Shown: in pieces, positions 9,154 through 55,512 of the stretch
Layout: each line of letters opens with the position of its first letter
Numbering within the stretch: position 1 is the stretch's first letter
Source: Escherichia phage AV101
Strand: one strand, 5' to 3'
Sequence record: OQ973471.1
Length of the DNA: 64,000 bases
Position numbers and translations under genes: made by a program
Notes under the pieces: generated by a model
The model's database searches: none
Seen by the model: the letters and a program-made list of their open reading frames with translations, nothing else
Told to the model about the DNA's origin: nothing

Positions 9154-9495
9154 ATGAAACTCAATAAGATTCTTCTGGTGTGCGCTCTGGCTTTCTCTAC
9201 CACTGCGTGCTCCACCCTTCTGGACGTTGCGTCTACTGTAGACCTTGACGCGCCGACGTTCACCAATGAGCAGGCTGTGTCCAAGATGGAAGACACCATT
9301 AAGGCGCATGCGGCGTTGGATAACGCCACCCCAGGTCCGCTCCAAACTGTCTGCAACTATGACGATTCCATCCAGGAAGACGAAACTTACCACTGCATCA
9401 CCTACGTGAAGCAGGCCTCCGTCGTTCTGTATGCAGATTGTACCGAAGAACAGTGTGTTGCTACAGGCTACGATAAAGTTGAGGAAGACAAATGA
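9154..9495 (+). CDS. Small lipoprotein (putative)
   Basis: MKLNKILLVCALAFSTTACS is a signal peptide with a lipobox-like Cys; AGGTGA RBS. Start placed at the ATG at 9154. Confidence 0.5.
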   Translation: MKLNKILLVCALAFSTTACSTLLDVASTVDLDAPTFTNEQAVSKMEDTIKAHAALDNATPGPLQTVCNYDDSIQEDETYHCITYVKQASVVLYADCTEEQCVATGYDKVEEDK

Positions 9496-10271
9496 ACAAC
9501 CTGGTTTGTATCTATGATATGAAATCAAAGGTCGGTGGCCTGTATCGCGTTCTCGTGGATGTTGACCTGACGTTGGTCGACAGCCTCTCCCCTTGGGTGC
9601 AGTGGTTCAACGAAGAGAACATCGCCGCCGCTGCTATCGCTACGGGGGAACATAAGTCATACCAGTTCCAGCCGATTACCAAAGAGTGTTATATGTCCCA
9701 TGCTGGCGACCTGGCTATTCTGATGCGTGAACGTGCGCATCCGGCGTGGCTATACCATGAAGTCCAATTGGGGGTGCACAAACAACGTGTGCCAAGCGGT
9801 AACGATCCTATGGACTGGTGGCGTCGCCCTGACTTGTACGCCAAGATGAACCCGCTCCCCGGCGCTTACGAGTTCCTGGTAAATCTGAAGGATATCTTGC
9901 TTGAAGATTTCGACAATGTTGAATTCGTTGCGGTGTCGAAGTGCGAGCCGGAACACGAGCGCAGCAAGCGCCAGTTTGTCTACGACAAGTTCCCTGGTAT
10001 CTTCAACGGGTTTGTCAGCACCGACGAAAAGCATCTGCTGGCAGGCGATGTCCTGATTGATGACAATCCGAAGTATGTCGAGCCGTGCGGTCTGAACAAC
10101 ATCTTTGTCATCTTTGTTCCTCAGGGCAATTATGAAAAACTGGATCTTTCGAACTCGGAAGATATGCTTTATATTAAACCAGTAGAAGGTCAGAATCACT
10201 TCGACTTCCTGAATTACAATATTGTTGAAGTGGTTAACCGCCTGATTAGTCATTATCAATACGTCCGATAG
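9492..10271 (+). CDS. HAD-superfamily phosphatase, possibly a 5'(3')-deoxyribonucleotidase
   Basis: HAD motif I VDVDLTLVD (DxDxT) and motif IV VLIDDNP; start overlaps the upstream stop (ATGA). Confidence 0.5.
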   Translation: MNNLVCIYDMKSKVGGLYRVLVDVDLTLVDSLSPWVQWFNEENIAAAAIATGEHKSYQFQPITKECYMSHAGDLAILMRERAHPAWLYHEVQLGVHKQRVPSGNDPMDWWRRPDLYAKMNPLPGAYEFLVNLKDILLEDFDNVEFVAVSKCEPEHERSKRQFVYDKFPGIFNGFVSTDEKHLLAGDVLIDDNPKYVEPCGLNNIFVIFVPQGNYEKLDLSNSEDMLYIKPVEGQNHFDFLNYNIVEVVNRLISHYQYVR

Positions 10272-10280
10272 GAGGACATC

Positions 10281-10586
10281 GTGCAAGATCAGAATAAGTT
10301 CGGGGAAATCCCCGACGAGCGTTTCGGTGATAGCGACATGGATGGCGTGATTAACCATGTGAACAACTTCATTCGCCAGCAGGAGACTCCGACTCCTATC
10401 GGCGCAGCCAAGGCTCTTCATGATGTACTGGTGAAGATCGGCCAGCGCTCTGAAGCGGATGAAATCTTCTATAACTTCGACGACCAGTATAAAGTGAAGT
10501 TTGAAGAGAATGGCCGCCCACAGGTTGCTGTGTTCTGGGCACCTTGGCTGGGCGGCGTGAGCTGGCGTATTGAGGATGCTGTGTAA
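10281..10586 (+). CDS. Hypothetical protein
   Basis: GTG start with AGGAGG RBS; 101 aa. Confidence 0.45.
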   Translation: MQDQNKFGEIPDERFGDSDMDGVINHVNNFIRQQETPTPIGAAKALHDVLVKIGQRSEADEIFYNFDDQYKVKFEENGRPQVAVFWAPWLGGVSWRIEDAV

Positions 10587-11272
10587 TGCTGTCGCTCTAC
10601 CTGATCACGAATCTCGTCAATCATAAATTCTATATCGGTGTCACCTCAGAACCGGATAGGCGGTTGGCTGAGCATAAGTGTGGTCAGGGGAGCATTGCAT
10701 TACAACGAGCGTTCAAGAAATACGGTGAAGACCAGTTCAAGTTTGAAGTTCTGTTCCGAGGGAAAGATTCGGTTATCCTTCAGATAGAGTCTGAACTGGT
10801 CTGCCAGGAGATCCTTGACTCTGGGTGGTGCTACAACATGGTCGTCGGGGGTGGGAAGCCTCCATTGGCCACGCCTAATTCATCTGCAAAGAGTGCTGCA
10901 ACCCGCAAACGTTTGATCGCTGAAGGTAAGATTAAACCTCCACCAAGACTCACCCCTGAAGCACAAGCCAGAAAGGGTAAGATCATAAGCAAATTGATGT
11001 CAGAAGGGAAGATCCCCAAACCACCAAGACCTTCCTCTGAATCTCAAACGCGTGGAGGGGAAACTAGGAAGAGGCTGCATGCTCTTGGCCTGATAGACAT
11101 TGGTCCTGGCCGCGATGAAACGATTTACAAATGGCAGCACAAAGATGGTCGCATTGTTGAGTTAAGAAGATGCGATATGGAACTTCAATATGGCCTCCCT
11201 TCCGGTAATATAACGAATCTCTTGAAAGGTAGGGCTAAAACATGTCTCGGTTGGAGAATATTAAATGGCTAA
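10586..11272 (+). CDS. GIY-YIG homing endonuclease (Seg-like)
   Basis: N-terminal LYLITNLVNHKFYIGVT...RRLAEHK GIY-YIG core; C-terminal tandem basic repeats KIKPPPRLTPEAQ / KIPKPPRPSSESQ; TAATG overlap with the upstream gene. Confidence 0.65.
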   Translation: MLSLYLITNLVNHKFYIGVTSEPDRRLAEHKCGQGSIALQRAFKKYGEDQFKFEVLFRGKDSVILQIESELVCQEILDSGWCYNMVVGGGKPPLATPNSSAKSAATRKRLIAEGKIKPPPRLTPEAQARKGKIISKLMSEGKIPKPPRPSSESQTRGGETRKRLHALGLIDIGPGRDETIYKWQHKDGRIVELRRCDMELQYGLPSGNITNLLKGRAKTCLGWRILNG

Positions 11273-12182
11273 AATAATTGTAGTGAAAGGCACCTCGGCC
11301 ACGGGCAAGGGTACGAGAGTGGTTCAGTTCATCGAATGGCTCCGTACGAAGCTGGAGCCTACCGAACTGACCTACACAGTTGGTGACAAGACTCGCCCGT
11401 TTGGCTTGAAGTTCGGAGAGCTGAAGTTAATCTTCGTTGGACAGTACACCGTGTCTAACAAATCCGGCCTGGCTTCCTGGACTTCAATGGATGCAATCCA
11501 TGCTGCTACAGGCTCAGGCGATATTGCTCGTGATCTAATCAAGTGCTGGTTGGTTCAGGGATACACTCTGGTGTGCGAGGGTGAACCCCTCATGCTGTCG
11601 GACAAATGGCGTCCTGAATGGATGTTCAAGAACTATCCGATTGAATCATTGGCGCTGCTGTACTTTGCGTACCCCGACCGCTATCAGTACGATGCTCGTA
11701 TCCGTGGTCGCTCTGGTAAAGAAGCAGGGAACTCCGGCTGGTCGCGCAACGAATCTTACTCCAAGGAGTTTGAGAAGTCGAAGGCCGAAATGCTGGCGCT
11801 GGGCTTCACTGTGGCTGTTGATGATTACAGCGGACAGGATATCCTGTATAAATCACCGAATGTCAACACCCAGGAGTTCCTGACCAGCCAGCAGTCAGAG
11901 TTGGCGGTACTACCGTTCGACGCCCCGCTTTGGGTGGTGGGTAACGCGATTTGTCATCAGATACGGTCCGAACTGCGTGAAGTTAACATGGACACCAAAG
12001 ACTTCTACGCCTACTGTGAAACCAATCCGATGACCCGTGAGGTCGGCGGTGAGGATCCTTTGGCGCACAGAGTCCCTGAGAAGCCGCAGAAGGCATCCAA
12101 AACTAAAACCAAGGCGAGCGCCCAGCCAGAAGCAACGAAGGCAGCGTCGCGCTCTCTCCTTGACCTGATGAAGAAGGGGTGA
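11265..12182 (+). CDS. P-loop nucleotide/nucleoside kinase-like protein
   Basis: N-terminal IIVVKGTSATGKGT is an NMP-kinase-type P-loop (GxxxxGKGT); 305 aa; overlaps neighbours at both ends. Confidence 0.45.
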   Translation: MAKIIVVKGTSATGKGTRVVQFIEWLRTKLEPTELTYTVGDKTRPFGLKFGELKLIFVGQYTVSNKSGLASWTSMDAIHAATGSGDIARDLIKCWLVQGYTLVCEGEPLMLSDKWRPEWMFKNYPIESLALLYFAYPDRYQYDARIRGRSGKEAGNSGWSRNESYSKEFEKSKAEMLALGFTVAVDDYSGQDILYKSPNVNTQEFLTSQQSELAVLPFDAPLWVVGNAICHQIRSELREVNMDTKDFYAYCETNPMTREVGGEDPLAHRVPEKPQKASKTKTKASAQPEATKAASRSLLDLMKKG

Positions 12183-12184
12183 TC

Positions 12185-12382
12185 ATGAAACGGTTGTCTA
12201 ATTATCTGTTGTTCATCGGTCTGATTATGGCAGCTATTTCAATGTGCGTTGGCCTGGCGTATCATTTCACTTCTCTGGATTTAACGACCTCAGAGAAGTT
12301 GAATGTGACTGTGATGTACTGTATTGGCGCGGTGATGTCTATCGGCGCTGCTGGTTACAAAATATTCAAGGAACCAAAATGA
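12185..12382 (+). CDS. Small membrane protein
   Basis: 66 aa with two hydrophobic helices; ATG at 12185 with AAGGGG RBS. Confidence 0.4.
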   Translation: MKRLSNYLLFIGLIMAAISMCVGLAYHFTSLDLTTSEKLNVTVMYCIGAVMSIGAAGYKIFKEPK

Positions 12383-12756
12383 AAATTCAAATCCCTCGCG
12401 ATGCTGTAGCTATTGCGATTGACTACACCGGAAACGCCAAGCACATTACTGCCGTGCGCCTGATTCCTGAAAAGAACTGCGTCATCCCTCAGTTCCAGCT
12501 GAATGCCAATCCGTCGTCCAAAGACTTCGGCAAGTGGTTACAGGCTGCTCCGTTCCGTACCCAGACGAATGCTCAGATGTTCATCTCGGGTAAGACCCAC
12601 ACTGCAGCCCGTCTGTGGTTCGTGACCGCTGACCGTCGCTTTGTCGATATGTGGGAACGTCCGATGGGGTTCGTGAAGCCGGAAGATATTCAGCTGGCTC
12701 CTGAGCCTGAAGCTGTGGCTCCTGAAGAGGAAGCGAAAGATGCATCATTTATCTAA
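12379..12756 (+). CDS. Hypothetical protein
   Basis: ATG at 12379 overlaps the upstream stop (ATGA); 125 aa. Confidence 0.4.
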   Translation: MKIQIPRDAVAIAIDYTGNAKHITAVRLIPEKNCVIPQFQLNANPSSKDFGKWLQAAPFRTQTNAQMFISGKTHTAARLWFVTADRRFVDMWERPMGFVKPEDIQLAPEPEAVAPEEEAKDASFI

Positions 12757-13975
12757 AATGCCGACGGGCTATACGCCTCCGACTGAATGGAAGTACCCGA
12801 TTGACCTATCTGTTGACTACCGTAAACCTGAGAATCGCATGTACCTGCTCAAGGCTTGGGTGGAGGCGCTGTCCTATACAGAAGAGCACAACCAACAGAT
12901 GCGTCTGATGGACTATGCGATTGAAGTCACTGAAGGCATCAGCCTCGAACAGAAAGTCGAGCGCAAGATCTGGATGGCATTCCTGTGGGGTTGTTGCTAT
13001 AACGCTGTCGGACCGTGGACGATCTACAGTGAGTTCCCTGTGCCGCCTCAGTCTAAGGAAGAGATGCAGCGCTTCTCAGACTGGTACAACCTGAACTTTG
13101 AACGCATGCGATTCGATACCGACTGTCGCTACCGCAAGTCCAAGATGATTCCGTGTGTTCAGTCCTATATTGACTGGCTGGCTGGTCGTACTCAATATGA
13201 CGCTTTCCGTGGGATGCTGGTGTGCATCGATAAGACAGAACAATTCACCCAGCTGTGGGACACGGCGATGTCCTGGAAATACTTCGGTCGCCTGAGCGCC
13301 TGGAACTTCCTGGAAGCCCTGAACATGGTCTTCGGGAACGAATACACCATTGACGTCCCTGGCTTCATGCTGCGTGATCGTGATGGAAGCGAGTCCAACC
13401 GTAATGGCGCGGCGTTCTTGTCTAACCGTGACGATTGGGTGACTAAACACGGGAAGAAAAAGATCAACGGTTGCCCTATCACGGATGAAGAGTGTGACAT
13501 CCTTGAGGCCGACCTTGAGCAGGCGTTCCAGGATTGTGTGGCTGAGTTCGGGCACCTGACGTTCATCAACCGCCTGAACTTTGAAACCTCCGGTGCTTGT
13601 TGGCTGAAGAAATTCTTCCGACTGAAGAATACCCGTTACATCGGGTGGGACGCAGAGCGTACATGGGATGAGATCGACTACATGGAACGCGTCTGGCCTG
13701 AATACTCCTGCGCAGCGCTCTGGGAAGCCCGTTCGCTCTGGCTGCCAGATACCCTGTTGTGCGAAAAGGCTCCTGCAGGGCACGTTCCAGGCGTCCAGAA
13801 GTGGAAGATGCCTGTGTTCTTTGAGACTGGTGTTCCTCTGCATATCTGGCACCTGCAAAAGGGTACGCGCTGGGAACCATCCGAGGTATGTACGAACCTG
13901 AAGATGCCTGTGCGCAAGGTTGAGGACAAGTCGAAGTCCAGCAGCGTCAACCTCATGGCACTCTTGAAACGCTGA
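12740..13975 (+). CDS. Hypothetical protein; candidate base-modification enzyme by context only
   Basis: 411-aa ORF translationally coupled downstream of the P-loop kinase gene; no motif recognised by eye. Confidence 0.4.
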   Translation: MHHLSKMPTGYTPPTEWKYPIDLSVDYRKPENRMYLLKAWVEALSYTEEHNQQMRLMDYAIEVTEGISLEQKVERKIWMAFLWGCCYNAVGPWTIYSEFPVPPQSKEEMQRFSDWYNLNFERMRFDTDCRYRKSKMIPCVQSYIDWLAGRTQYDAFRGMLVCIDKTEQFTQLWDTAMSWKYFGRLSAWNFLEALNMVFGNEYTIDVPGFMLRDRDGSESNRNGAAFLSNRDDWVTKHGKKKINGCPITDEECDILEADLEQAFQDCVAEFGHLTFINRLNFETSGACWLKKFFRLKNTRYIGWDAERTWDEIDYMERVWPEYSCAALWEARSLWLPDTLLCEKAPAGHVPGVQKWKMPVFFETGVPLHIWHLQKGTRWEPSEVCTNLKMPVRKVEDKSKSSSVNLMALLKR

Positions 13976-13983
13976 TATAAATA
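13976..13983 (+). promoter_or_regulatory. T4-type late promoter core TATAAATA
   Basis: Exact TATAAATA directly after the stop of the preceding gene, overlapping a 10-bp perfect inverted repeat (13981-14007). Confidence 0.45.
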
Positions 13984-14011
13984 TCCTCGCCTATAAAGCG
14001 AGGATATTATC

Positions 14012-14179
14012 ATGTTACAAGATCTGCTGGTTTATGCGCTTCCTGGCGCGGTTGTCGGCTTCATTGCTGGTGCTCTGGTCTTCCGTAAACACGCGCAAGA
14101 CGGTGAAGTGATTGTTCAGAAGGGTAAAGATATCCTGGAACAAATCGAAGCCAAACTGGACGAGCTGAAGAAAAAGTAA
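14012..14179 (+). CDS. Small membrane protein (55 aa)
   Basis: Hand-translated MLQDLLVYALPGAVVGFIAGALVFRK...; below the ORF-track cutoff; its GAGGA RBS lies inside the upstream hairpin. Confidence 0.4.
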   Translation: MLQDLLVYALPGAVVGFIAGALVFRKHAQDGEVIVQKGKDILEQIEAKLDELKKK

Positions 14180-14207
14180 TCTGACTGGGGTTGCTTCCTT
14201 CAATAAA

Positions 14208-14248
14208 GGGGAATGGGTTATTATTAGCCCGTTCCCCTTTCTTTTTGC
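14208..14248 (+). terminator. Rho-independent terminator with embedded TATTAT
   Basis: Stem GGGGAATGGG/CCCGTTCCCC, loop TTATTATTAG, then TTTCTTTTT; preceded by TTCAATAAA at 14199. Confidence 0.65.
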
Positions 14249-14261
14249 AAGGATATACATC

Positions 14262-14459
14262 ATGGAAACCCAAGATTATAAGATCTTAGTGACAACTGTT
14301 GGCTTCGACGGGAAGAATCAATCTATTGCAGTAGACACTTCCGTTCTGGAGTTCAAGGACAAGAGTTCGGCAGAAACGGCGTTTGCTCATTTGGTAAAAT
14401 CACAAAGACATATGAGCACTTTTATGTGTGTCAAACAAACATACACCAAACTCTATTAA
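14262..14459 (+). CDS. Hypothetical protein
   Basis: 65-aa ORF after the terminator. Confidence 0.35.
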   Translation: METQDYKILVTTVGFDGKNQSIAVDTSVLEFKDKSSAETAFAHLVKSQRHMSTFMCVKQTYTKLY

Positions 14460-14471
14460 GAGGATTTCACT

Positions 14472-14696
14472 ATGGCAATGCAACGAATTGAAGATATGGA
14501 CTCCCTGGATATCGAATCTATGGTGTCTGTAATGCTCGAAGAAGATCGCAAGACCCCTGTGGTACAGTATCAGATGCCGGAATTGGGCGACGCTGATGGG
14601 CTGTGGAAAATGCTGAACGGCAACAAATCCTCCGGTAAGAGTGGGTTTGTCCGTGGCGAACTGAATATCATTTGTGTCGGAGGGTGTACAAGATGA
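14472..14696 (+). CDS. Hypothetical protein
   Basis: 74-aa ORF. Confidence 0.35.
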   Translation: MAMQRIEDMDSLDIESMVSVMLEEDRKTPVVQYQMPELGDADGLWKMLNGNKSSGKSGFVRGELNIICVGGCTR

Positions 14697-14911
14697 TCAA
14701 GAATACCCGAACAATGAAGCGCGCAATCGCTCACTGTGTCCATTCAGTGGCAACTATTATGTTCCGCCACCACATCACATTTGATGAAGCACTGGACCCA
14801 CAGTACCATGAAGAGCGTTGGGATTTGTTGTTAAAGAACGGTGCCAAACCTGAGCATAAAGATCAACTCCTTGGGATGACCAAGGCGCAGCTCGTCGGTG
14901 AATCCAAATGA
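14693..14911 (+). CDS. Hypothetical protein
   Basis: ATG at 14693 overlaps the upstream stop (ATGA), GGAGGG RBS; 72 aa. Confidence 0.35.
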   Translation: MIKNTRTMKRAIAHCVHSVATIMFRHHITFDEALDPQYHEERWDLLLKNGAKPEHKDQLLGMTKAQLVGESK

Positions 14912-16023
14912 TCTACCTCCTGTTTGGTGTGCCATTGGTACTGGCTATCCTGTTTGTGACCTACCACCGCAAGACCCATGAGCCGAAAGAGACTCTGATA
15001 GCGACCGCGATTGTGGTGGTGCTATCCTGTCTGATTCAGGCGGGGACTTATGCTGCGTTCTCTCTTGGTAGTTCAGGGGATGTTGAGATCCTGAACGGGT
15101 ACGTCACTGCAAAGGAGCGGAATAAGGTGAGCTGTGAGCATTCATATGAATGCAACTGCTACTACACCACATCATGCTCCGGCTCCGGCAGCAGCAAGTC
15201 CTGTACCCGCACTCGCCATTGCAGTACATGTTATGAGCATTCATATGACGTGGACTGGGATGTGTTGACGACTGTCGGTAATCTGACGATTGACCGCATT
15301 GATCGTCGCGGCCTTGGTCAGCCCCCGCGCTGGGCGCAGGTTCAGATCGGCGAACCCGCAGCCCGTGAGCATTCCTACATGAACTATGTGCTGGGTAACA
15401 AGGACTCTCTGTTCTCTCGCTCGGACCAGCAGTTTGCTGAGCGCTTCAAAGACAAGATTCCGAAGTATCCCGAAGTCTATGACTACTATCGCGTCACTCG
15501 TGTACTGAATGTGTCTGGTCTGGCGTTACCGACCACATACTGGAACGACTATCTGAATGATGTCCTGAAGAAGCTGGGCGCAGCCAAGCAGGTGAACATC
15601 GTCTGGGTTGTGACTTCCGGCCAGCCAGTTGAATACTTCCAGGGCTTGGTCTATGCTTGGGATGGTGGTAAAAAGAACGACGTTATCGTCGTGACCGACA
15701 TCAGCAAAGATCTGAAGATCAACTGGGGTAAGAGCACTTCGTTCGCTGATGGTATGCATAACCGTGAACTCCATTCTCGTAATGGCATGGCTCTCACAGG
15801 CCACGACATGGGTGTCGGTGTCATGGCTGATGTTGTCGCTAACATCACCAAAGGCTACAACCGCGTTGAGATGAAGGAAATGGAGTACCTGAAGTGGCGG
15901 GAACTCAAGACCTGGGAAGTTGTGATTGTTGTTCTACTGGGCTGTCTGCCGTTCACCGCAATTTTCATATTACAGCGAATGGAGTACAATGGTGGCCGTC
16001 GTCGTTATCCGTTTAATTTTTAA
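14908..16023 (+). CDS. Membrane protein with N- and C-terminal transmembrane segments and a Cys-rich central domain
   Basis: Hydrophobic N-terminus LLFGVPLVLAILFV and C-terminus VVIVVLLGCLPFTAIFIL; Cys cluster CEHSYECNCYYTTSC. Confidence 0.5.
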   Translation: MIYLLFGVPLVLAILFVTYHRKTHEPKETLIATAIVVVLSCLIQAGTYAAFSLGSSGDVEILNGYVTAKERNKVSCEHSYECNCYYTTSCSGSGSSKSCTRTRHCSTCYEHSYDVDWDVLTTVGNLTIDRIDRRGLGQPPRWAQVQIGEPAAREHSYMNYVLGNKDSLFSRSDQQFAERFKDKIPKYPEVYDYYRVTRVLNVSGLALPTTYWNDYLNDVLKKLGAAKQVNIVWVVTSGQPVEYFQGLVYAWDGGKKNDVIVVTDISKDLKINWGKSTSFADGMHNRELHSRNGMALTGHDMGVGVMADVVANITKGYNRVEMKEMEYLKWRELKTWEVVIVVLLGCLPFTAIFILQRMEYNGGRRRYPFNF

Positions 16024-16041
16024 TCAAAAGAGGAAGTAAGA

Positions 16042-16611
16042 ATGTCTCAATCTAAGGGTATCGCAACAGGTTGGATAGTTGGTTTGGCTTTGCTGGGTAT
16101 AGTGATTCTCGGCATCAGTACAGTCATCAGCTACTTCAACGACTTCAACCGCACTGAGCAGCAGGTCAAGAAGTTCAACAAAGACTCCGAGAACTACCTG
16201 AGCAACTACACGCTCAAAGTTCAGGAGACGGCGCAGATTCCTGACATGTATAAAGACGGCCTGAAGGAAGTGATCAAAGGCACGTTCGAAGGGCGTTATG
16301 GCGCTGATGGTTCCAAGGCCGTCATGCAGTGGATCCAGGAGCAGAATATTCAGTTCGATTCCAGCTTGTACAAAGAGATCCAGGTGGTGATCAGTTCTGG
16401 GCGTGATGAATTCCGCATCAGCCAGACCAAGAAGCTGGATATCTGCACAATATACGAAACCAAGCTGGCTCAGTTCCCTGGTTCGTTAATTGCTGGTATG
16501 TTTGGCTACCCGCGCATCGATCTTGACAAAACCTGTCAGGTGGTGAGTGATACCCGTACCCAAGCCGCGTTCGACGCTGGTATTCAGAAACCGATTAACT
16601 TCAAAGGCTGA
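16042..16611 (+). CDS. LemA-family membrane protein (putative)
   Basis: N-terminal transmembrane helix followed by a region resembling LemA (NDFNRTEQQVKKFNKD...); AAGAGGAAG RBS. Confidence 0.45.
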   Translation: MSQSKGIATGWIVGLALLGIVILGISTVISYFNDFNRTEQQVKKFNKDSENYLSNYTLKVQETAQIPDMYKDGLKEVIKGTFEGRYGADGSKAVMQWIQEQNIQFDSSLYKEIQVVISSGRDEFRISQTKKLDICTIYETKLAQFPGSLIAGMFGYPRIDLDKTCQVVSDTRTQAAFDAGIQKPINFKG

Positions 16612-16615
16612 TGTC

Positions 16616-17029
16616 ATGAGCGTGAAACTCACTGAATCCCTGACACTGGACCAACAGCAGGCTCTGTTGGATGAAGTAGTGATCTCTGCTATCAAGCAAG
16701 GGATCATCAAAGACGACATATTGATTACCCGCCCCGAGATGATCCATCATCTGGTGGTGTGCCTGGGTGAGGCCAGCAACCCTCGCAAGAAGATCGTGCT
16801 GTTTACTGATGGTGTGATCCTTCCGAGCGGGAACTGTGCGTTCTTGGATGTGGTTGAACATCCGAACACGAAAGGCAAAGAGGTCAAGACTTCTGTTCCG
16901 GTGACCCCATACACCGAGGGTGTTGATCAGCTGTCTTGGTTTGAGACAATCAACACCATTTATGTGATGGCACCGGACGGTAAACCAGTTCGGGATCTAC
17001 GAGGCGGCAAAGTAGAATCTGAAGACTAA
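16616..17029 (+). CDS. Hypothetical protein
   Basis: Start placed at the ATG at 16616, just after the upstream stop, instead of the overlapping ORF-track start. Confidence 0.45.
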   Translation: MSVKLTESLTLDQQQALLDEVVISAIKQGIIKDDILITRPEMIHHLVVCLGEASNPRKKIVLFTDGVILPSGNCAFLDVVEHPNTKGKEVKTSVPVTPYTEGVDQLSWFETINTIYVMAPDGKPVRDLRGGKVESED

Positions 17030-17046
17030 TCGTTCTTCAATAAAAG

Positions 17047-17077
17047 GGGATAGGGTATTATTGCTCTATCCCTTTTT
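17047..17077 (+). terminator. Rho-independent terminator with embedded TATTAT
   Basis: Stem GGGATAG/CTATCCC, loop containing TATTAT, then TTTTT; preceded by TTCAATAAA at 17036. Confidence 0.6.
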
Positions 17078-17140
17078 CGTGGACAGGAACATGACAGACA
17101 AGCCAAGAAAGATGAAGAACAAACGCCGGAGCAAACGCTG

Positions 17141-17596
17141 ATGACTACCAAACCAACTTATGAAGAACTGGCGCAGACCGTTCTGACCTTTGACAGCACC
17201 CTGAAGAATCTTTACAAGGTGCTGGGAAATAACCCGACTTCAGAGTCAGGAGAAACAGTTAATCTTCTGTTACTGATGAACCCTCTGTGGGATATTGATG
17301 CCACTATTGCTGCCCTGAAAGATCCTAGGGCACAGGAGCCGGAGCCAACCCCTGTATCCACTGGGATTCAGAAATACCTGGAGAACTTTGACGAGTACTC
17401 CTTCACCGATCTGCTCCTGCGTGATATGATCAACGCAGAACGCCGTCGCCAGGGGAAGAACTGTCCTGTGGTCCAGTCTGATGAAGAAATCGAGCAGAGT
17501 GTTAGAGAAGATCTGAACAGCACCTACTCGCCGATCGATCTGGCTGTAATGATTGTTCAGGCGCTGTCCTACGCCGCCAAAGGAGAAACGAAATGA
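17141..17596 (+). CDS. Hypothetical protein
   Basis: 151-aa ORF. Confidence 0.45.
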   Translation: MTTKPTYEELAQTVLTFDSTLKNLYKVLGNNPTSESGETVNLLLLMNPLWDIDATIAALKDPRAQEPEPTPVSTGIQKYLENFDEYSFTDLLLRDMINAERRRQGKNCPVVQSDEEIEQSVREDLNSTYSPIDLAVMIVQALSYAAKGETK

Positions 17597-17793
17597 AGAA
17601 ATCATCTGCGGCTGTTGCTGCTATGCTAGCGTTGTCAGAAATGGAAATCGTCGCCGCGCATCGTGGTGATGACATGTGGGGGCGTCGTTACACTCAGGGT
17701 GGCACACCCGGCGAACCGGGACATGGTCGCCCATCTGTAACCCGCAAGAAGAAGGCGAAGACCAATGGAAAGAACAAGCGCAAACGTAAGTGA
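17593..17793 (+). CDS. Hypothetical small basic protein
   Basis: 66 aa; Lys/Arg-rich C-terminus; ATGA overlap with the upstream gene. Confidence 0.35.
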   Translation: MKKSSAAVAAMLALSEMEIVAAHRGDDMWGRRYTQGGTPGEPGHGRPSVTRKKKAKTNGKNKRKRK

Positions 17794-17934
17794 GGAGTGC
17801 CTGAAGGATCTTTCTGCAGGCACTCCAAAGTTGGCCAGATCATGGGTGATGTTTGATGACCGACGAGATAATCTTCCTTCGAGCAGAGGTCGCTCGATTA
17901 AGTAAAACCGAACCCAAAAAGTAGAGGATATGTT

Positions 17935-18282
17935 ATGAGTTCTATTGAACAGCTGATCACCCCACAGTATGTGTACTCCAACATTGTTGAGCACCTGCGC
18001 TCACAGTTGAACGTGGGAACCCTGAGCAGCACTGACCTGAAAGATCTACAAATCGTTGAAGTCGAAGTGGCGGCCTTTGGTTCTCGCTATCACTTCAATG
18101 TGGAATACACGCGTGTAGAAGAGCAGCAGTCCTCTATCATCGCGCTGGCTACTCCAGTCAACCCACGCAAAGAGCCTGTGTCGGTCACCCGCACCATCAT
18201 CGGCTATCTGGAAGAGAAGTTGGAACCTGGTGCCCAGCGCCCAACATTCGACTTCCAGGCGCGATTTGCCACCGAAGATTGA
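17935..18282 (+). CDS. Hypothetical protein
   Basis: 115 aa; GAGGA RBS; terminator follows. Confidence 0.45.
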   Translation: MSSIEQLITPQYVYSNIVEHLRSQLNVGTLSSTDLKDLQIVEVEVAAFGSRYHFNVEYTRVEEQQSSIIALATPVNPRKEPVSVTRTIIGYLEEKLEPGAQRPTFDFQARFATED

Positions 18283-18291
18283 TCTGAACAA

Positions 18292-18313
18292 AGCCCTCTG
18301 CTGAGGGCTTTTT
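18292..18313 (+). terminator. Rho-independent terminator
   Basis: AGCCCTC-TGCT-GAGGGCT followed by TTTTT; TTCAAT 15 nt TATTAT element immediately downstream (18312-18338). Confidence 0.6.
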
Positions 18314-18389
18314 CAATTGAAGACACCCACCGTATTATACCCACTCAACCAATATGTTTCCCCTTTGACATTGATAGGATTTCTATACT

Positions 18390-21146
18390 ATGAAAATGCG
18401 CAAGTCCGAGCACTTTATCCGCTCGTCGTCTTCCATTCAGGGGCAGGCGTTCAACGTGAAGATGAACGATAAGATGTTTGAGACTCTGTTCTCATCATTG
18501 TATCGTTACAAAGAGGCTGCAGCCCTGCGCGAAACCGTCTGTAACGCCATCGACTCCCATGGCATGCGTGATCGTATGCACCGTGTGATGGCATCCCACT
18601 ACGCGCCTCTCACTCCGCCTCCTGCCCGCCATAGCAAATACCTTGCACCGAAGGGTAAGCAGGTTGTTGTGCATCTACCTGATGACTTTGAACCATGGCT
18701 GGAAATACGTGATTACGGCATCGGTCTGCCACTTGAGAAGATCATTGGCGAGCCTATCCCAGCGCAGGAAGATGAGGTGCTGCTGGAAGGTAACATGGTG
18801 GTCAAGGAAGATGAGATCCCTGACTCAGCTGAGGTCATCGGCGTGCCTGCGTTCTATAATGGTGGTCTAGTGTTCCGTCGTGAAGATGGTGAAATCATTC
18901 GTACGCCTGGGTTGTATACCACTCTCTTCCACAGTACGAAGGAAGAAGATGATGATCAGATTGGGGCATTCGGTCTTGGCTCCAAATCACCATTTGCGGT
19001 ATCGGATTCGTTCACTGTGGAAAGCCGCATGGACGGTAAACTCCATCGCTTCCTGATGTACCTGAATGCCAAGCGCATCCCGACTGTTGATCTGATCACC
19101 AAAGATCTTGAAACCCGTGATCCTAAGCCGGAAGACACCGATGAGTTCAACGGCATGACGGTGAAGATCCCGGTGAAGAACGCTCGTTTCTCTGCATTCT
19201 CCGATGAACTGGTCCGTCTTGGTCGTGTTATGCGCCCTGAACAGCGTCCAATTGTTGAGAACGCTTCATACCGCTTCAGCTGGGAAGATATCAGTTATGA
19301 ATTCAAGGTCAACAACACGTACATCCAGCCGAAAGGCCAGGGGAACACCCATTATGCTGTAATGGGTGGCGTGTCGTACCCGATTGACCTGAATCAGCTC
19401 GATCCAGACACTTCCTCTATCATGAGCAAGTTTCCATCGTCCTATACGTTCTTCGAACTTGGCTCGCTGAACGTACCGCCGTCGCGTGAAGACCTTTCAT
19501 ATGACGAATTCACGCGTGAGACGCTCTCTGAGGAGTTTAAGGGCACCGCCAATGCAATCTTGACAGAAAAGATGCGTGACCTGGAGCTGGCGTGTAAGCG
19601 CGGTCCTCTTGCCCTGTATATGGAGAAGGCAAGACTGAGCGAAATGTTCGGCAGCGGGTTCCGCAAGATGGTTGAAAAGGAATACCCGGCTGACAAGCGC
19701 TTCCACGATTCATATTACCGTTACCCGCTGCCTGTTGAGATTGATCGCGATTATGACCATACCGCGCCGTTCAATGAGCTGTCATCGCCGTTTTCTATGG
19801 AGATCTTCTATGACTGGGGTGAGTCCAGTACCCTGACCATTTCAGAAATCCAGAAGTGGATTGATCGCGGCCAGCATGTTACTGTGGTGATTGAAGATAG
19901 TGTTCGCGCACGTAATCTGAAGATCAAGCAGCTGAAAGATACAGGGACGATAGTCATCGTGGCCAAGCCGAACACATCCTATGTCACCAAGCGCAACCAA
20001 TCTAAGGACAACCCTGCGTTCAAGAATTCTCAGGCTCTCTATGATTTCTTTGAAACTTGGATTGGTAAAGAAGAAACGACGGTTGATTATCTGTGCTTCG
20101 CTGACAAGTTCGTCGATTGGCTGAGTGCGGTGCTGGAGCCTGCTGAAGTTAAGTTCATGAACGAACTGACGTATGTCACGCCCCCGGTCACCAAAGACCC
20201 TGGCATGTTTCCGTTCACGCGCAGCAACTTCGACATATACCAGTCTGAAGAACTGACGGGCGACCAGATCTCAGATATCATCAACAAGGGCGAGCGCATC
20301 GTCTATATTGAGGTGTCTGGCTATGAGTGTATCCATCAGGTGATGGGCAGAACGTTGACCACAGCTGCGGCGCGAGGCATCCGCGAGTCTCTCTACAAAC
20401 ATGCCGTTCACGCGGATGAAGATGGCAAGCCTGTGTACATCAAAGATATGCTCAATATTCACGACAGAATATTCTTGGCTCGCCGTAAATCCGTGCCAAT
20501 GATGAAGAAGTTCCCAGAAGTCTTCATTCCGATTGATGAGATTCTGAAGATTATGTTGGAGAATGCCAAGCCGATGCTGGAACGCCACAACGCGATACGG
20601 TTGCTGAAATCTCATCAGAGACTTCACCTTGGTTCTAATCGCCTGAAATACGGGTGTCATCTGGTAAAACAGGCGTTCGGTGAAGGGGAAGACGGGCGTT
20701 ATAATCAGCTGGTTAATCGGTATAACCAAATGCTGTATTATGTTGACAATATCTTGGACGAACAAACTATCCGCCATTATCAGGCGATGTCGAAGCGTAA
20801 TGTTTCTCTTCATGAGGTTCGCCGCTTCAAACATTTCCAGGATACGATCAGCACTCTGAATCTGAATCTGTATACCAATGAGCGGGATGAAAGGGTGTTC
20901 CGCGCGGAACAACGTATGTTGCAAATCTTCAGTCGCGCATCGGAAGTTCTGAGGATTCACGGATTCGTACCGTTTGATTTACTGAAGACGCCAACACGGA
21001 ACGCGAAAAAGGCGAACCGCATGACCGTAGAACGTCATCGTGTTGTCCGGTTCTTGAAAGAGAATTACAAACCAAGCGCCCTGAACCCGATTGAAAATTC
21101 TTCGGATTACTTGGACGTTATTTCAAATTCCATTATCAGGGCATAA
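18390..21146 (+). CDS. rIIA: rIIA-like protein (GHKL-type ATPase-like N-terminus)
   Basis: ETVCNAIDSHG, IRDYGIGLP and GAFGLGSKSPFAVSDSFTVESR match the conserved N-terminal blocks of T4 rIIA as I recall them. Confidence 0.8.
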   Translation: MKMRKSEHFIRSSSSIQGQAFNVKMNDKMFETLFSSLYRYKEAAALRETVCNAIDSHGMRDRMHRVMASHYAPLTPPPARHSKYLAPKGKQVVVHLPDDFEPWLEIRDYGIGLPLEKIIGEPIPAQEDEVLLEGNMVVKEDEIPDSAEVIGVPAFYNGGLVFRREDGEIIRTPGLYTTLFHSTKEEDDDQIGAFGLGSKSPFAVSDSFTVESRMDGKLHRFLMYLNAKRIPTVDLITKDLETRDPKPEDTDEFNGMTVKIPVKNARFSAFSDELVRLGRVMRPEQRPIVENASYRFSWEDISYEFKVNNTYIQPKGQGNTHYAVMGGVSYPIDLNQLDPDTSSIMSKFPSSYTFFELGSLNVPPSREDLSYDEFTRETLSEEFKGTANAILTEKMRDLELACKRGPLALYMEKARLSEMFGSGFRKMVEKEYPADKRFHDSYYRYPLPVEIDRDYDHTAPFNELSSPFSMEIFYDWGESSTLTISEIQKWIDRGQHVTVVIEDSVRARNLKIKQLKDTGTIVIVAKPNTSYVTKRNQSKDNPAFKNSQALYDFFETWIGKEETTVDYLCFADKFVDWLSAVLEPAEVKFMNELTYVTPPVTKDPGMFPFTRSNFDIYQSEELTGDQISDIINKGERIVYIEVSGYECIHQVMGRTLTTAAARGIRESLYKHAVHADEDGKPVYIKDMLNIHDRIFLARRKSVPMMKKFPEVFIPIDEILKIMLENAKPMLERHNAIRLLKSHQRLHLGSNRLKYGCHLVKQAFGEGEDGRYNQLVNRYNQMLYYVDNILDEQTIRHYQAMSKRNVSLHEVRRFKHFQDTISTLNLNLYTNERDERVFRAEQRMLQIFSRASEVLRIHGFVPFDLLKTPTRNAKKANRMTVERHRVVRFLKENYKPSALNPIENSSDYLDVISNSIIRA

Positions 21147-24841: not shown

Positions 24842-24871
24842 GCCATGAACGCGATGATCATGGGTTAACAA

Positions 24872-24895
24872 AAGAGGCTCCGGCCTCTTTTTCAT
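24872..24895 (+). terminator. Rho-independent terminator
   Basis: AAGAGGC-TCCG-GCCTCTT followed by TTTTT; shares the GAGGCTCCGGCCTC core with the hairpin at 22763-22785. Confidence 0.6.
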
Positions 24896-24959
24896 TTCCG
24901 GTATTCGGTGTATAATGGACTCGTTCCCCATGAGCGGAACCTAACTGAGGATACACCAA

Positions 24960-31198: not shown

Positions 31199-31609
31199 AT
31201 GAAATTACTGGGATATTTTCGTGAACTCCCAACGGGAACTGAAGGCAAGTTGTTCTCACAGGTGAAGGGGGATGACATCGGTGATACGATGATTCCATTG
31301 TACACTCGTGAACTTCCTGTCGAAGGTGCCTGGGAGCGCCGTGTGGTCGCTGCCGCCAACAAATATGGTGATGTAATCGTCGTTGCTGACCGTCACCACA
31401 GCCGATTCATGAACAACCAGCTCAAGATCCTGAAAGAAGCAGGCGTCATTAAATCCACCCATACCCGCGAACAGGGATTCATCGACAACCAGGGCAACTT
31501 CCTCACTCGTGAAGAGGCATGCATCGTAGCCCGTGAAGCTGGACAGATCAATCAGGTGCGCCTGAAGACAACCCCTTTCCGTGAACTCTTTTCCGAAGAC
31601 CTCTATTGA
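31199..31609 (+). CDS. Hypothetical protein
   Basis: 136 aa; conserved-looking block GFIDNQGNFLTREEACIVAREAGQI that I could not assign. Confidence 0.45.
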   Translation: MKLLGYFRELPTGTEGKLFSQVKGDDIGDTMIPLYTRELPVEGAWERRVVAAANKYGDVIVVADRHHSRFMNNQLKILKEAGVIKSTHTREQGFIDNQGNFLTREEACIVAREAGQINQVRLKTTPFRELFSEDLY

Positions 31610-31615
31610 AGAAAA

Positions 31616-31640
31616 AGGCGGTATTATTACCGCCTCGACC
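31616..31640 (+). terminator. Stem-loop with TTAT loop (terminator-like)
   Basis: AGGCGGTA-TTAT-TACCGCCT directly after the stop codon, preceded by TATTGAAGAA. Confidence 0.5.
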
Positions 31641-31659: not shown

Positions 31660-31902
31660 ATGAACCCAGAATTTGAAAATCTGTTCGAGCGATGCTTCGA
31701 ACCAGGTTCTGTGTCCGGTTACATGGACCGTCTTTGCACTGCCATTGTAATACGCCTTGCTGCCAAGGGTATCGTTGTCAACACCATTATCCGCAATGGG
31801 AACAACTTTATCATGCAGATGACTGATTATCACCGCCGCACAGGCATCATCCAGGTGTCATGTGTTGACAATAGCATTATTGAATGGAGACAGTACGCAT
31901 GA
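31660..31902 (+). CDS. Hypothetical protein
   Basis: 80-aa ORF. Confidence 0.4.
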   Translation: MNPEFENLFERCFEPGSVSGYMDRLCTAIVIRLAAKGIVVNTIIRNGNNFIMQMTDYHRRTGIIQVSCVDNSIIEWRQYA

Positions 31903-35297: not shown

Positions 35298-35367
35298 ATA
35301 AAGATTCAGCGGTTATTGAAGAAGGGGGAGTATATACTTCCCCTTAGTTTATTAAGAGGAACCGGAA

Positions 35368-45152: not shown

Positions 45153-45265
45153 GTGGTGTCTCCAGGGTTATATGTGCTGCTATTATAACCCTGGGGACTT
45201 CAATAGATTATTGGCGGGTACGGGATCTTGCCTGGCCGATAATGAGGTCAGTGTGTAGTCCTCGG

Positions 45266-45607: not shown

Positions 45608-45859
45608 GGTATGTTCCTTCTGTAAGTTCCCATGTATTATATGGGTGAATCGTTTAATGAATTATTTGTTATGGAAACCCAGAGCCTTGTGGACTTCTTC
45701 ACGATTTTAATTTCGGCCTGAGCCTCTGTGTGATTATCCGGTGCTTGTGATGTCAGACGAGGACTTTGTAAACAGCATTGGCGTCAATGGCATCGATTAG
45801 ACAACGGATCTCAGCGCATCAGGGGCTTACCCAACAGCCAGTTGAAATACTTGCGCATG

Positions 45860-48171: not shown

Positions 48172-48235
48172 GATGTGCTCCTGGTTTACATTCAGATCAT
48201 AGAATTATACCCTATGACCTGCTTTATTGAATTGC

Positions 48236-54408: not shown

Positions 54409-54483
54409 AAACTGCTCCGATAAACAAAAGGAGCTGCTATTATAGCAACCCCTTCATCTATTGAACAGTTTCTGAACTTAAAT

Positions 54484-55323: not shown

Positions 55324-55512
55324 AATAAAAACCCTTTCGTTATTAAGACCGTATCCGCAGCATATTGTTGTTCTGACTGTGTAGTGAGAACATAATATAC
55401 TGCATTTTCATAGATGTAAACTACTTTTTATTGAAAAGAAAGTTAACACCTTAGTGTTATAAGGTGCGCGACCAAGCGGAGCGCGAACTTGCGTGAATAT
55501 TAACTTTCTACG

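Follow-up and report, generated by a model that had tools for sequence, protein, structure and literature searches.

Promoter-like cassettes nested in or abutting terminator-like hairpins at gene boundaries of Escherichia phage AV101

The run of small genes between the DNA polymerase gene (6092-9091) and rIIA (18390-21146) of Escherichia phage AV101 contains, at position 14199, a short cassette in which a conserved upstream box is followed by a -10-type hexamer at the apex of a terminator-like hairpin. Positions refer to the 64,000-nucleotide stretch that was analysed (record OQ973471.1), in the following called the window. With a relaxed definition of the cassette (spacers of N12-16, hexamer TATWAT, TTCATT and an inverted box allowed) 15 copies are found in the window. 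We regard it as likely that these cassettes are promoters specific to this phage family, each nested in or abutting a terminator hairpin and marking the boundary of a transcription unit, of the type described as PeSL or PmSL in T4-like phages. From the anatomy of the cassettes, their enrichment, orientation and conservation, their strand-specific folding and the insertions and deletions that they bound, we infer promoter activity, start sites and termination, and from these features we also reason about which protein may read the box.

The phage is a member of the ViI-like phages (Ackermannviridae, Aglimvirinae). The window has a G+C content of about 50%. Four tRNA genes lie near its left end, and Rfam, run over the entire window at gathering thresholds, returned 4 tRNAs and nothing else. 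The closest relative is Escherichia phage A221, with 97% nucleotide identity over positions 12000-20000. Altogether 283 related records were matched, from phages of Salmonella, Klebsiella, Escherichia, Dickeya and Shigella. Conservation of the cassettes was assessed in 14-19 loci of relatives retrieved via a flanking protein, and the background for the composite motif was obtained from 300 dinucleotide shuffles of the window.

The cassette at 14199 and its copies in the window

The focal cassette lies between a gene at 14012-14179, the end of which precedes the box, and a gene for a 65-aa product, and comprises the following elements:

14199..14207, + strand: upstream box TTCAATAAA, spanning roughly -32 to -24 with respect to the predicted start; conservation 95-100% among 14 relatives
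14205..14240, + strand: hairpin of 16 pairs, 2 of them G·U, with the hexamer at its apex
14219..14224, + strand: -10-type hexamer TATTAT, with TA in the stem and TTAT as the loop
14238..14246, + strand: T-tract TTTCTTTTT, tail of an intrinsic-terminator-like structure ending the 14012-14179 gene
14249..14264, + strand: AAGGA Shine-Dalgarno sequence and ATG (14262) of the 65-aa gene; the mosaic breakpoint begins at about 14254

TTCAAT is exact at 14199-14204 and is separated from the hexamer by N14, or by 11 nt if counted from the end of the 9-mer box. The hexamer TATTAT agrees in five of six positions with the TATAAT published for ViI-like phages and retains A2 and T6. The start of the focal promoter is predicted near 14231 (G), within the 3' arm of the hairpin. 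This hairpin folds with -26.5 kcal/mol (z = -6.2 against shuffles) and is the highest-ranked terminator-like site that a generic scanner reported in 1-20000.

An earlier note made from the bare sequence had proposed a recurrent cassette of the box, about 14 nt and TATTAT or TATAAT. This is borne out by the counts: TTCAATAAA has 7 matches in the window as compared with 0.56 expected, a number reached in 0 of 100 shuffles, and TTCAAT-N13-16-TAT[AT]AT also has 7 matches, where the shuffles gave a mean of 0.057 and a maximum of 1 (n=300). The complete genome of A221 contains 13 matches to the latter pattern. The motif frequency is far above the shuffle expectation. In the window, 8 further cassettes were found, five with a direct box (1507, 24891, 54465, 59459 with N12, and 60631) and three with the box on the opposite strand (31604, 35314 and 45205). 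Apart from the focal cassette, the copies are:

444..468, + strand: cassette without a hairpin, TTCAATAA-N11-TATAGT (N13 from TTCAAT), 10 nt ahead of tRNA-Asn (478)
1507..1550, + strand: TTCAATGA box; TAAAAT 1528-1533 in the loop of an 8-pair G5/C5 hairpin 1520-1550; z = -3.4; ATG 1574
9092..9124, + strand: TTCAATAA box right after the DNA polymerase stop; TATAAT 9112-9117 is the loop of AGGGGGA/TCCCCCT 9105-9124; ATG 9154
17036..17077, + strand: TTCAATAA box; 16-pair hairpin 17042-17077 with 3 G·U, ending in TTTTT and carrying TATTAT 17056-17061 at its apex; z = -6.5
18290..18338, + strand: putative rIIA promoter; terminator hairpin and T-run 18290-18313 overlapping the palindromic box TTCAATTGAA 18312-18321; TATTAT 18333-18338; ATG 18390
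24870..24916, + strand: terminator hairpin and T-run 24870-24892 overlapping the box TTCATTTC 24891-24898; TATAAT 24911-24916; ATG 24960
31604..31635, + strand: inverted box TATTGAAG (reverse complement of CTTCAATA), 10 nt, then TATTAT 31622-31627, which forms the apex of hairpin 31616-31635 (8 pairs); z = -3.3; ATG 31660
35314..35345, + strand: inverted box TATTGAAG, 9 nt, then TATATA 35331-35336, which forms the apex of hairpin 35322-35345 (10 pairs); z = -3.0; ATG 35368
45158..45205, - strand: putative DNA ligase promoter; inverted box TATTGAAG 45205->45198; TATAAT 45187->45182 in the 5' arm of hairpin 45198->45158; z = -4.8; ATG 45152
45629..45661, - strand: TTCATTAA box; TATAAT 45641->45636; weak 5-bp stem only, z = -0.9; ATG 45607
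48193..48231, - strand: TTCAATAA box; 13-pair hairpin 48221->48193 (3 G·U, no U-tract) carrying TATAAT 48209->48204 at its apex; z = -3.9; ATG 48171
54417..54465, - strand: TTCAATAG box; TATAAT 54444->54439 at the apex of a 13-pair hairpin 54455->54427, then TTTTGTTT; before the 5-hmdU DNA kinase gene; z = -5.0; ATG 54408
59429..59459, - strand: TTCAATGT box, 12-nt spacing; stem CGGGGTA/TACCCCG with TATAAT 59441->59436 at its apex; upstream of the gene for the gp32 ssDNA-binding protein; z = -2.6
60606..60631, - strand: TTCAATGT-N12-TATAAT, intragenic; doubtful member

Fourteen of the 15 cassettes are intergenic and face the downstream gene or tRNA; the exception, 60631, lies within a gene and may be either an internal promoter or a chance match. 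The box starts 0-20 nt past the upstream stop codon, and the distance from the end of the hexamer to the ATG is 28-51 nt, or 75 nt at gp32. TTCAAT is exact at 10 of the 12 direct-box sites (24891 and 45661 have TTCATT), and an exact TATAAT hexamer is present at 9092, 48231, 54465, 45661 and 59459. The spacing between TTCAAT and hexamer ranges from N12 to N16 across the window, with N14 as the commonest value, which confirms the earlier remark that it is too short for a -35/-10 pair. Counted from the 9-mer box, the distance is 11-13 nt at most direct-box sites, including 9092, 14199, 17036, 48231 and 54465 (full range 9-13). At 18312 the arrangement is TTCAATTG-N13-TATTAT, and the upstream terminator shares two T with the box and does not enclose the hexamer. 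The site at 45661 has TTCATTAAA together with TATAAT, and its TTCATTAA box is replaced by TTCAATAA in A221 and in an IMG/VR relative (locus L036). The site at 9092 alone can also be read as TTGATT-N18-TATAAT. The genes downstream of the cassettes are pre-replicative, comprising rIIA, gp32, DNA ligase, the 5-hmdU DNA kinase, nrdA (in A221) and small unknown ORFs; tRNA-Asn is preceded by a cassette as well.

Seven of the eight sites named in the earlier note have the geometry of box and hexamer. The eighth, at 55435, had to be rejected: its box lies 32 nt from any hexamer and is a stray copy beside a promoter of canonical type, TTTACA-N17-TATTAT (55420->55392). Another sequence, CCCTTTGACA, was rejected as a general part of the cassette; it is found, and conserved, downstream of two cassettes (9131, 18362). 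These copies, at 9130-9140 and 18361-18370 on the + strand, are located about 13-25 nt past the cassette and just 5' of the ribosome-binding site, and the one at 9130 is 94% conserved among relatives.

Hairpins, conservation and gene exchange

In 10 of the 15 cassettes the hexamer is located at the loop, apex or 5' arm of a hairpin (z from -2.6 to -6.5), and in 8 of these 10 the dyad axis runs through the hexamer itself. Two further cassettes (18312, 24891) have a terminator hairpin abutting the box. Among the sites noted before, the claim that the hexamer sits inside a hairpin is correct for 9092, 14199, 17036 and 48231, whereas 45661 has a weak stem, at 18312 the terminator lies upstream, and 444 has no hairpin. 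A first version of a control for hexamers at hairpin apices, which allowed G·U pairs and loops of up to 16 nt, was too lax, with half of all hexamers passing. When a minimum of 7 pairs, with 4 or more G-C pairs, was demanded, it was passed by 8 of 60 TATWAT hexamers. Five of them belong to cassettes already known, and on inspection the other three also proved to be cassettes: the hexamers at 31622 and 45187 (inverted-box sites 31604 and 45205) and at 59441 (direct-box site 59459).

The hairpins are not equivalent on the two strands. The four long nested hairpins contain two or three G·U pairs each and the 35314 hairpin contains one. For the four long hairpins the sense and antisense folding energies are -26.0/-16.8 (14199), -21.1/-9.8, -13.6/-7.1 and -16.8/-8.0 kcal/mol, so that the antisense RNA folds 6-11 kcal/mol weaker than the sense RNA. 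The stem style AAAGGGG...CCCCTTT is common to cassettes and to the stand-alone terminators at 4496 and 5416. Three sites, 14205-14246, 17042-17077 and 54455-54419, have the full make-up of an intrinsic terminator in the orientation of the upstream gene, with a stem rich in G and C closed by a short loop and a U-tract immediately behind it. The former label of a G-rich terminator is therefore appropriate for 14199, 17036 and 54465 and does not extend to every nested hairpin. The cassette at the ligase gene is conserved throughout the family, with compensatory changes in its stem, where one pair is A-T in the window type, G·T in Kuttervirus-like loci and G-C in the type of locus L038. Strand asymmetry, terminator-like stem style and this A-T/G·T/G-C series favour a function in the sense transcript and disfavour a cruciform or an N4-like DNA hairpin; the strand-specific stems and the pair series point to an RNA terminator or attenuator that would act on upstream transcripts. 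The hairpin probably stops transcription arriving from the upstream gene. By the coordinates of all 10 nested cassettes, transcription predicted to begin about 7 nt past the hexamer would start downstream of the 5' arm; RNA of the promoter itself could therefore not form the hairpin and would escape termination.

A variation of this arrangement was observed at the nrdA promoter of A221 (L026 75128-75177), where an inverted repeat CGCCGCC...GGCGGCG encloses the TTCAAT box and not the -10 hexamer. The hairpin hence does not occupy a fixed place within the cassette, which has also been reported for PeSLs.

The cassettes are 95-100% identical in 14-19 relatives, in contrast to 65-90% identity in the flanking coding DNA. 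Just past 14252 identity among the relatives falls to 40-60%, and in nearly all loci compared a breakpoint is found at window positions 14254-14268, 6-20 nt after the cassette. Locus L016 regains homology to the window precisely at the 9092 box, and in other relatives the starts of the alignments (235, 254 or 481 in the query) coincide with cassettes. The clearest case of gene gain or loss mediated by cassettes lies outside the window: in A221 (L025 31835-32130) two near-identical cassettes at 31835 and 32095 (TTCAATAACGGGGCGAGAGGTATTATTGCCC...) flank a 201-bp ORF, and phage ZQ1 (L028 536-575) has one hybrid cassette and lacks this ORF. A comparison of insertion points of accessory genes, suggested along with the initial description, hence places breakpoints at cassettes and gives, with A221 and ZQ1, an ORF bounded by them.

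Several genes in this part of the window vary among the relatives. From 14254 to about 14700 (+ strand) a hypervariable module of two genes is replaced or divergent in every locus compared. Even L023, a relative with 97% identity, has a very divergent allele in place of the 65-aa product of 14262-14459, and the second small gene differs too. A 17-codon ORF at 17092-17142 (+ strand; MTDKPRKMKNKRRSKR) is what an in-frame deletion has left of a gene of about 110 aa, which is intact in L023, L002, L006 and L009. The ORF for a 228-aa product at 10586-11272 (+ strand) is missing from many relatives, with alignment breakpoints at 10578-10588 and 11264; this pattern is consistent with the homing endonucleases annotated in relatives. 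The DNA polymerase is a single ORF of 999 aa in the window (6092-9091, + strand), while in A221 (L001 12699-16163) it is annotated as two CDSs about 400 bp apart with a small reverse ORF between them, which could be due to an insertion, a frameshift or an annotation artefact.

The promoter reading and its alternatives

According to the explanation that we favour, each cassette would combine a promoter and a stop signal. The promoter would be a pre-late one, serving early or middle genes, with a sigma-70-type -10 element (TATAAT/TATTAT) and the TTCAATAA box centred near -28, which would substitute for a normal -35 element. In about two thirds of the copies an inverted repeat has the -10 hexamer as its apex, and read-through RNA from a co-directional upstream gene would fold into a G/C-rich stem-loop. 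Where a U-tract follows, this stem-loop would act as an intrinsic terminator; elsewhere it may be an attenuator or a protective 3' end. Transcripts started about 7 nt past the hexamer would lack half of the hairpin and would not be terminated. In this way each small gene or module would be insulated from read-through and restarted within a spacer of 60-80 nt. As a side effect, the conserved cassettes might offer homology for recombination that adds, deletes or swaps the genes between them.

The spacing of box and hexamer is preserved whether the hairpin encloses the hexamer, sits upstream (18312, 24891) or is absent (444), which indicates that box and hexamer are the primary unit. A scan for canonical sigma-70 promoters found 23 sites in 1-20000 against 19 ± 4.3 expected, which is no enrichment, and 39 against 24.6 ± 5.5 in the A221 genome, a mild enrichment. 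Given that canonical sites are barely enriched, the cassettes are not ordinary -35/-10 promoters and appear to be the main class of pre-late promoters. One of the very few canonical sites is the near-consensus TTGACA-N17-AATAAT at 199-227 (+ strand), directly before tRNA-Met (230); the next tRNA (Asn) has its own promoter-like site of the TTCAAT type.

Several observations speak against this explanation or limit it. With TTCAAT only 14 nt away from the hexamer, a sigma-70 -35/-10 pair would not be functional, and the explanation does not account for the recruitment of RNA polymerase. Five nested hairpins (9092, 1507, 48231, 59459, 31604) have no proper U-tract and would act weakly, if at all, as intrinsic terminators. 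In most stems the sequence is conserved without covariation, with one clear compensatory pair only. In the 9092, 14199 and 17036 stems no covariation was found among the relatives, where only single-sided changes from G-C to G·U occur, and these stems are almost invariant, so that the covariation test carries no information there. Transcript mapping for any Ackermannviridae phage was not found in the searchable literature, so that promoter and terminator activity are predictions. Evidence for shuffling inside the window consists of one recurrent breakpoint. The indel at 17099-17113 beside the 17036 cassette was rejected as a case of cassette shuffling, being an in-frame deletion between GCCAAGAA(A)GAT microhomologies inside the gene of about 110 aa.

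The alternative that survives best refines the promoter half of this explanation. It holds that a separate DNA-binding factor, of phage or host, recognises the TTCAATAA box, replaces -35 recognition and makes the cassettes activator-dependent middle promoters, comparable to the 'sigma appropriation' by MotA/AsiA or to class II activators. We consider this possible, although only tentatively. The 9-mer box at 11-13 nt from the hexamer has the geometry of a MotA box, for which the PmSLs with Mot box and TATTAT form a precedent, and no conserved element was found at the 17-nt (-35) position among the compared cassettes. At three hairpin-embedded promoters the box is on the opposite strand. The corresponding pattern TATTGAA-N10-13-TATWWW has 3 matches as compared with 0.04 in shuffles, the pattern having been chosen after the sites had been seen, and another inverted-box site is present in a more distant genus (locus L020, 10128). 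At the rIIA promoter the 10-bp dyad TTCWATWGAA is kept across genera while the spacer diverges, in the variants TTCAATTGAA, TTCAATAGAA and TTCTATTGAA (window 18312-18321; loci L003, L013, L020 and others). A box that is inverted or dyad-symmetric fits a separate DNA-binding factor better than region 4 of sigma-70. An immediate-early activator could be driven by a few of the canonical sigma-70 promoters.

However, no homologue of AsiA or MotA was detected by tblastn in the A221 genome and the window, a negative that does not extend to structural analogues. The best E values, 0.006-0.013, fell inside a topoisomerase gene, with a validated AsiA query and an unvalidated MotA query. Likewise, for phage CBA120 neither MotA nor AsiA was found and early and middle promoters were not identifiable (Kutter et al. 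2011). Most direct boxes carry the half-site only. Moreover, the cassettes are the sole strongly enriched pre-late class and precede tRNA and rIIA genes, so that at least some copies must already be active at the start of infection with the host polymerase in its unmodified form, unless a protein is injected from the virion. On balance, binding of the box by a separate factor appears rather less probable than recognition in another manner. Still more doubtful is a narrower version, in which the box is read not by sigma-70 but by a factor that binds in either orientation, or as a dimer on TTCWATWGAA near -28, as a takeover independent of MotA/AsiA and specific to Ackermannviridae. A speculative candidate would be a phage HU or histone-like protein acting on hypermodified-thymine DNA, by analogy with TF1 in phage SPO1. 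If such a factor exists, it would answer the question of Kutter et al. 2011 on how early and middle timing is achieved in ViI-like phages.

Two side observations concern the region before rIIA. The dyad is fused to the T-run of the preceding terminator, and the stem of this terminator covaries between genera (GCCCTC/GAGGGC, GCCTCC/GGAGGC, GCCCC/GGGGC).

A DNA-level hairpin is improbable. Following the early hairpin promoters of phage N4 and cruciform-regulated promoters, the repeat around the -10 would be extruded under supercoiling as a cruciform or single-strand hairpin that presents or hides the -10, with termination as an incidental effect. Such a role would suit the dyad axis crossing the hexamer, the high conservation of the stem sequences and the several hairpins that, without a U-tract, are not textbook terminators. 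Yet the two or three G·U pairs become C·A mismatches on the other strand, which disfavours a symmetric cruciform, and the stems share the style of stand-alone terminators. The same promoter class moreover occurs without a hairpin around the hexamer at 444, 18312, 24891 and 45661, and the annotation of A221 contains no RNA polymerase gene, only the late factors gp55 and gp33.

Even less probable is a signal at the RNA level only, in which UUCAAUAAA and the stem-loop would direct 3'-end processing or stability of the upstream mRNA and the TATAAT-like loop would be incidental. The short distance between upstream stop codon and box and the sense-strand specificity of the hairpins would agree with it. 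But the spacing of 12-16 nt is preserved where no hairpin encloses the hexamer (444, 18312, 24891), in one case before a tRNA, the hexamers match TATAAT/TATTAT far beyond the needs of an AT-rich loop, and the distance to the downstream ATG is constrained. An invertible box would also make no sense for an RNA motif.

An artefact of chance or composition in AT-rich intergenic DNA, for which one could cite the frequency of ATTGAAG in coding DNA (44 matches) and the one strict match within a gene (60631), is refuted by the enrichment of the composite motif and by 95-100% identity across genera, and it also conflicts with the consistent orientation and intergenic placement and with the independent publication of the motif.

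Relation to known systems

The string TTCAAT[N14]TATAAT has been described as one of 'two unique regulatory motifs' of ViI-like phages (EspM4VN paper, PMC7283392). It has the same sequence and spacing and occurs in the same phage family as the cassettes of the window. It was given, however, as a bare string with 5 copies per genome, as opposed to about 15 in 64 kb with the relaxed definition used here, and the nested hairpin, the overlap with a terminator, the longer box (TTCAATAA or the 10-bp dyad) and the link to shuffling are absent from the searchable literature, which also cites no experimental validation of the motif. The motif is said to originate in the proposal of the genus Viunalikevirus by Adriaenssens et al. 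in Arch Virol of 2012. Orthologues of three sites, 9092 (Porf237), 54465 (Porf067) and 24891 (Porf009), were listed as tentative sigma-70-like early promoters in the AG3 paper, and the 2024 review of the Ackermannviridae makes no mention of promoters or transcription.

Since the core motif was already published, the main value of the present analysis is a better map. In place of about 5 copies of the strict string per genome, the relaxed definition yields about 15 in 64 kb, covering most pre-late gene starts. This amounts to a usable map of transcription units for a phage family that is being developed for biocontrol and diagnostics (CBA120, LIMEstone, SPTD1.NL). For engineering, a promoter within a terminator would be a ready-made insulating part of 50 nt, and the cassettes would indicate natural places where payload genes can be inserted safely. 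For the early promoters and regulators that the CBA120 authors were unable to identify, the inverted or dyad box offers a concrete starting point. Furthermore, shuffling of the PeSL type appears to operate outside the T4-like phages proper.

The companion motif of late type, CTAAATAcCcc, is present in the window at 3500 and 3995. It occurs as CTAAATACCCC at 3500-3536 and 3995-4035 (+ strand), with an ATG 25-40 nt downstream of each copy. The copy at 3500 contributes AAATACCCC as 5' arm to an inverted repeat, the 3' arm of which, GGGGTATTT, directly precedes ATG 3534; by analogy with T4 gene e and soc, the ribosome-binding region would be hidden only in read-through RNA. This arrangement recurs in A221 at 3720, 34245 and 153141.

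In T4 gene e, soc and I-TevI, a hairpin is active only in read-through RNA, with a promoter starting inside it. The cassettes resemble these genes in that the promoter lies within an inverted repeat, its own RNA would lack the 5' arm and a longer RNA would fold. In T4, however, the hairpin hides the ribosome-binding site, whereas the hairpin of the cassettes is placed to end or attenuate an upstream transcript. With T4 middle promoters the cassettes share a box centred near -28 to -30, located 11-13 bp from a TAnnnT -10, the lack of a -35 element and the association with genes of DNA metabolism. They differ in the box itself, (a/t)3TGCTT(t/c)A for MotA in contrast to TTCAATAA without TGCTT, and in that the box is invertible or palindromic. 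Homologues of MotA and AsiA were not found here either (tblastn, MotA query unvalidated). The hairpin promoters of N4, with a stem of 5-7 bp, a loop of 3 nt and a phage or virion RNA polymerase, do not correspond to the cassettes, which have stems of 7-16 bp and G·U pairs on one strand.

In architecture the cassettes match the PeSLs of T4-like phages (RB49/phi1, T4/PST, KVP40/nt-1; Arbiol et al. 2010, PMC2839356; Comeau et al. 2014, PMC4122927). PeSLs are intergenic, with a Shine-Dalgarno sequence and then a start codon downstream of them (Arbiol et al. 2010, PMC2839356), and the PmSLs of vibriophage nt-1 combine a Mot box with a TATTAT -10 (Comeau et al. 2014, PMC4122927). The likeness, already suggested in the earlier note, holds on the points examined, namely the nested hairpin, the intergenic position, the Shine-Dalgarno sequence with ATG and the gain and loss of genes bounded by cassettes. 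In both systems a promoter is joined to a polyG/polyC stem-loop, placed either across the -10 or between the boxes, which would serve as terminator for upstream transcription, and copies flank small unknown ORFs and mark boundaries of indels or mosaics. The cassettes of AV101 differ in the -35 region, which is not TTGACA-N17 but TTCAATAA at N14, sometimes inverted, and in the phage family. The 12 nt upstream of the box are neither conserved nor AT-rich, and no UP region was seen there. In addition, many cassettes precede core genes (rIIA, gp32, ligase, nrdA of A221) and are not confined to hyperplastic regions. For PeSLs, promoter and terminator activity and mini-circles have been demonstrated. 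Nesting, strand-specific stems, the inverted or dyad box and shuffling in Ackermannviridae appear to be unreported in the searchable literature. The core motif and the composite kind are already known, and the cassette of AV101 extends them.

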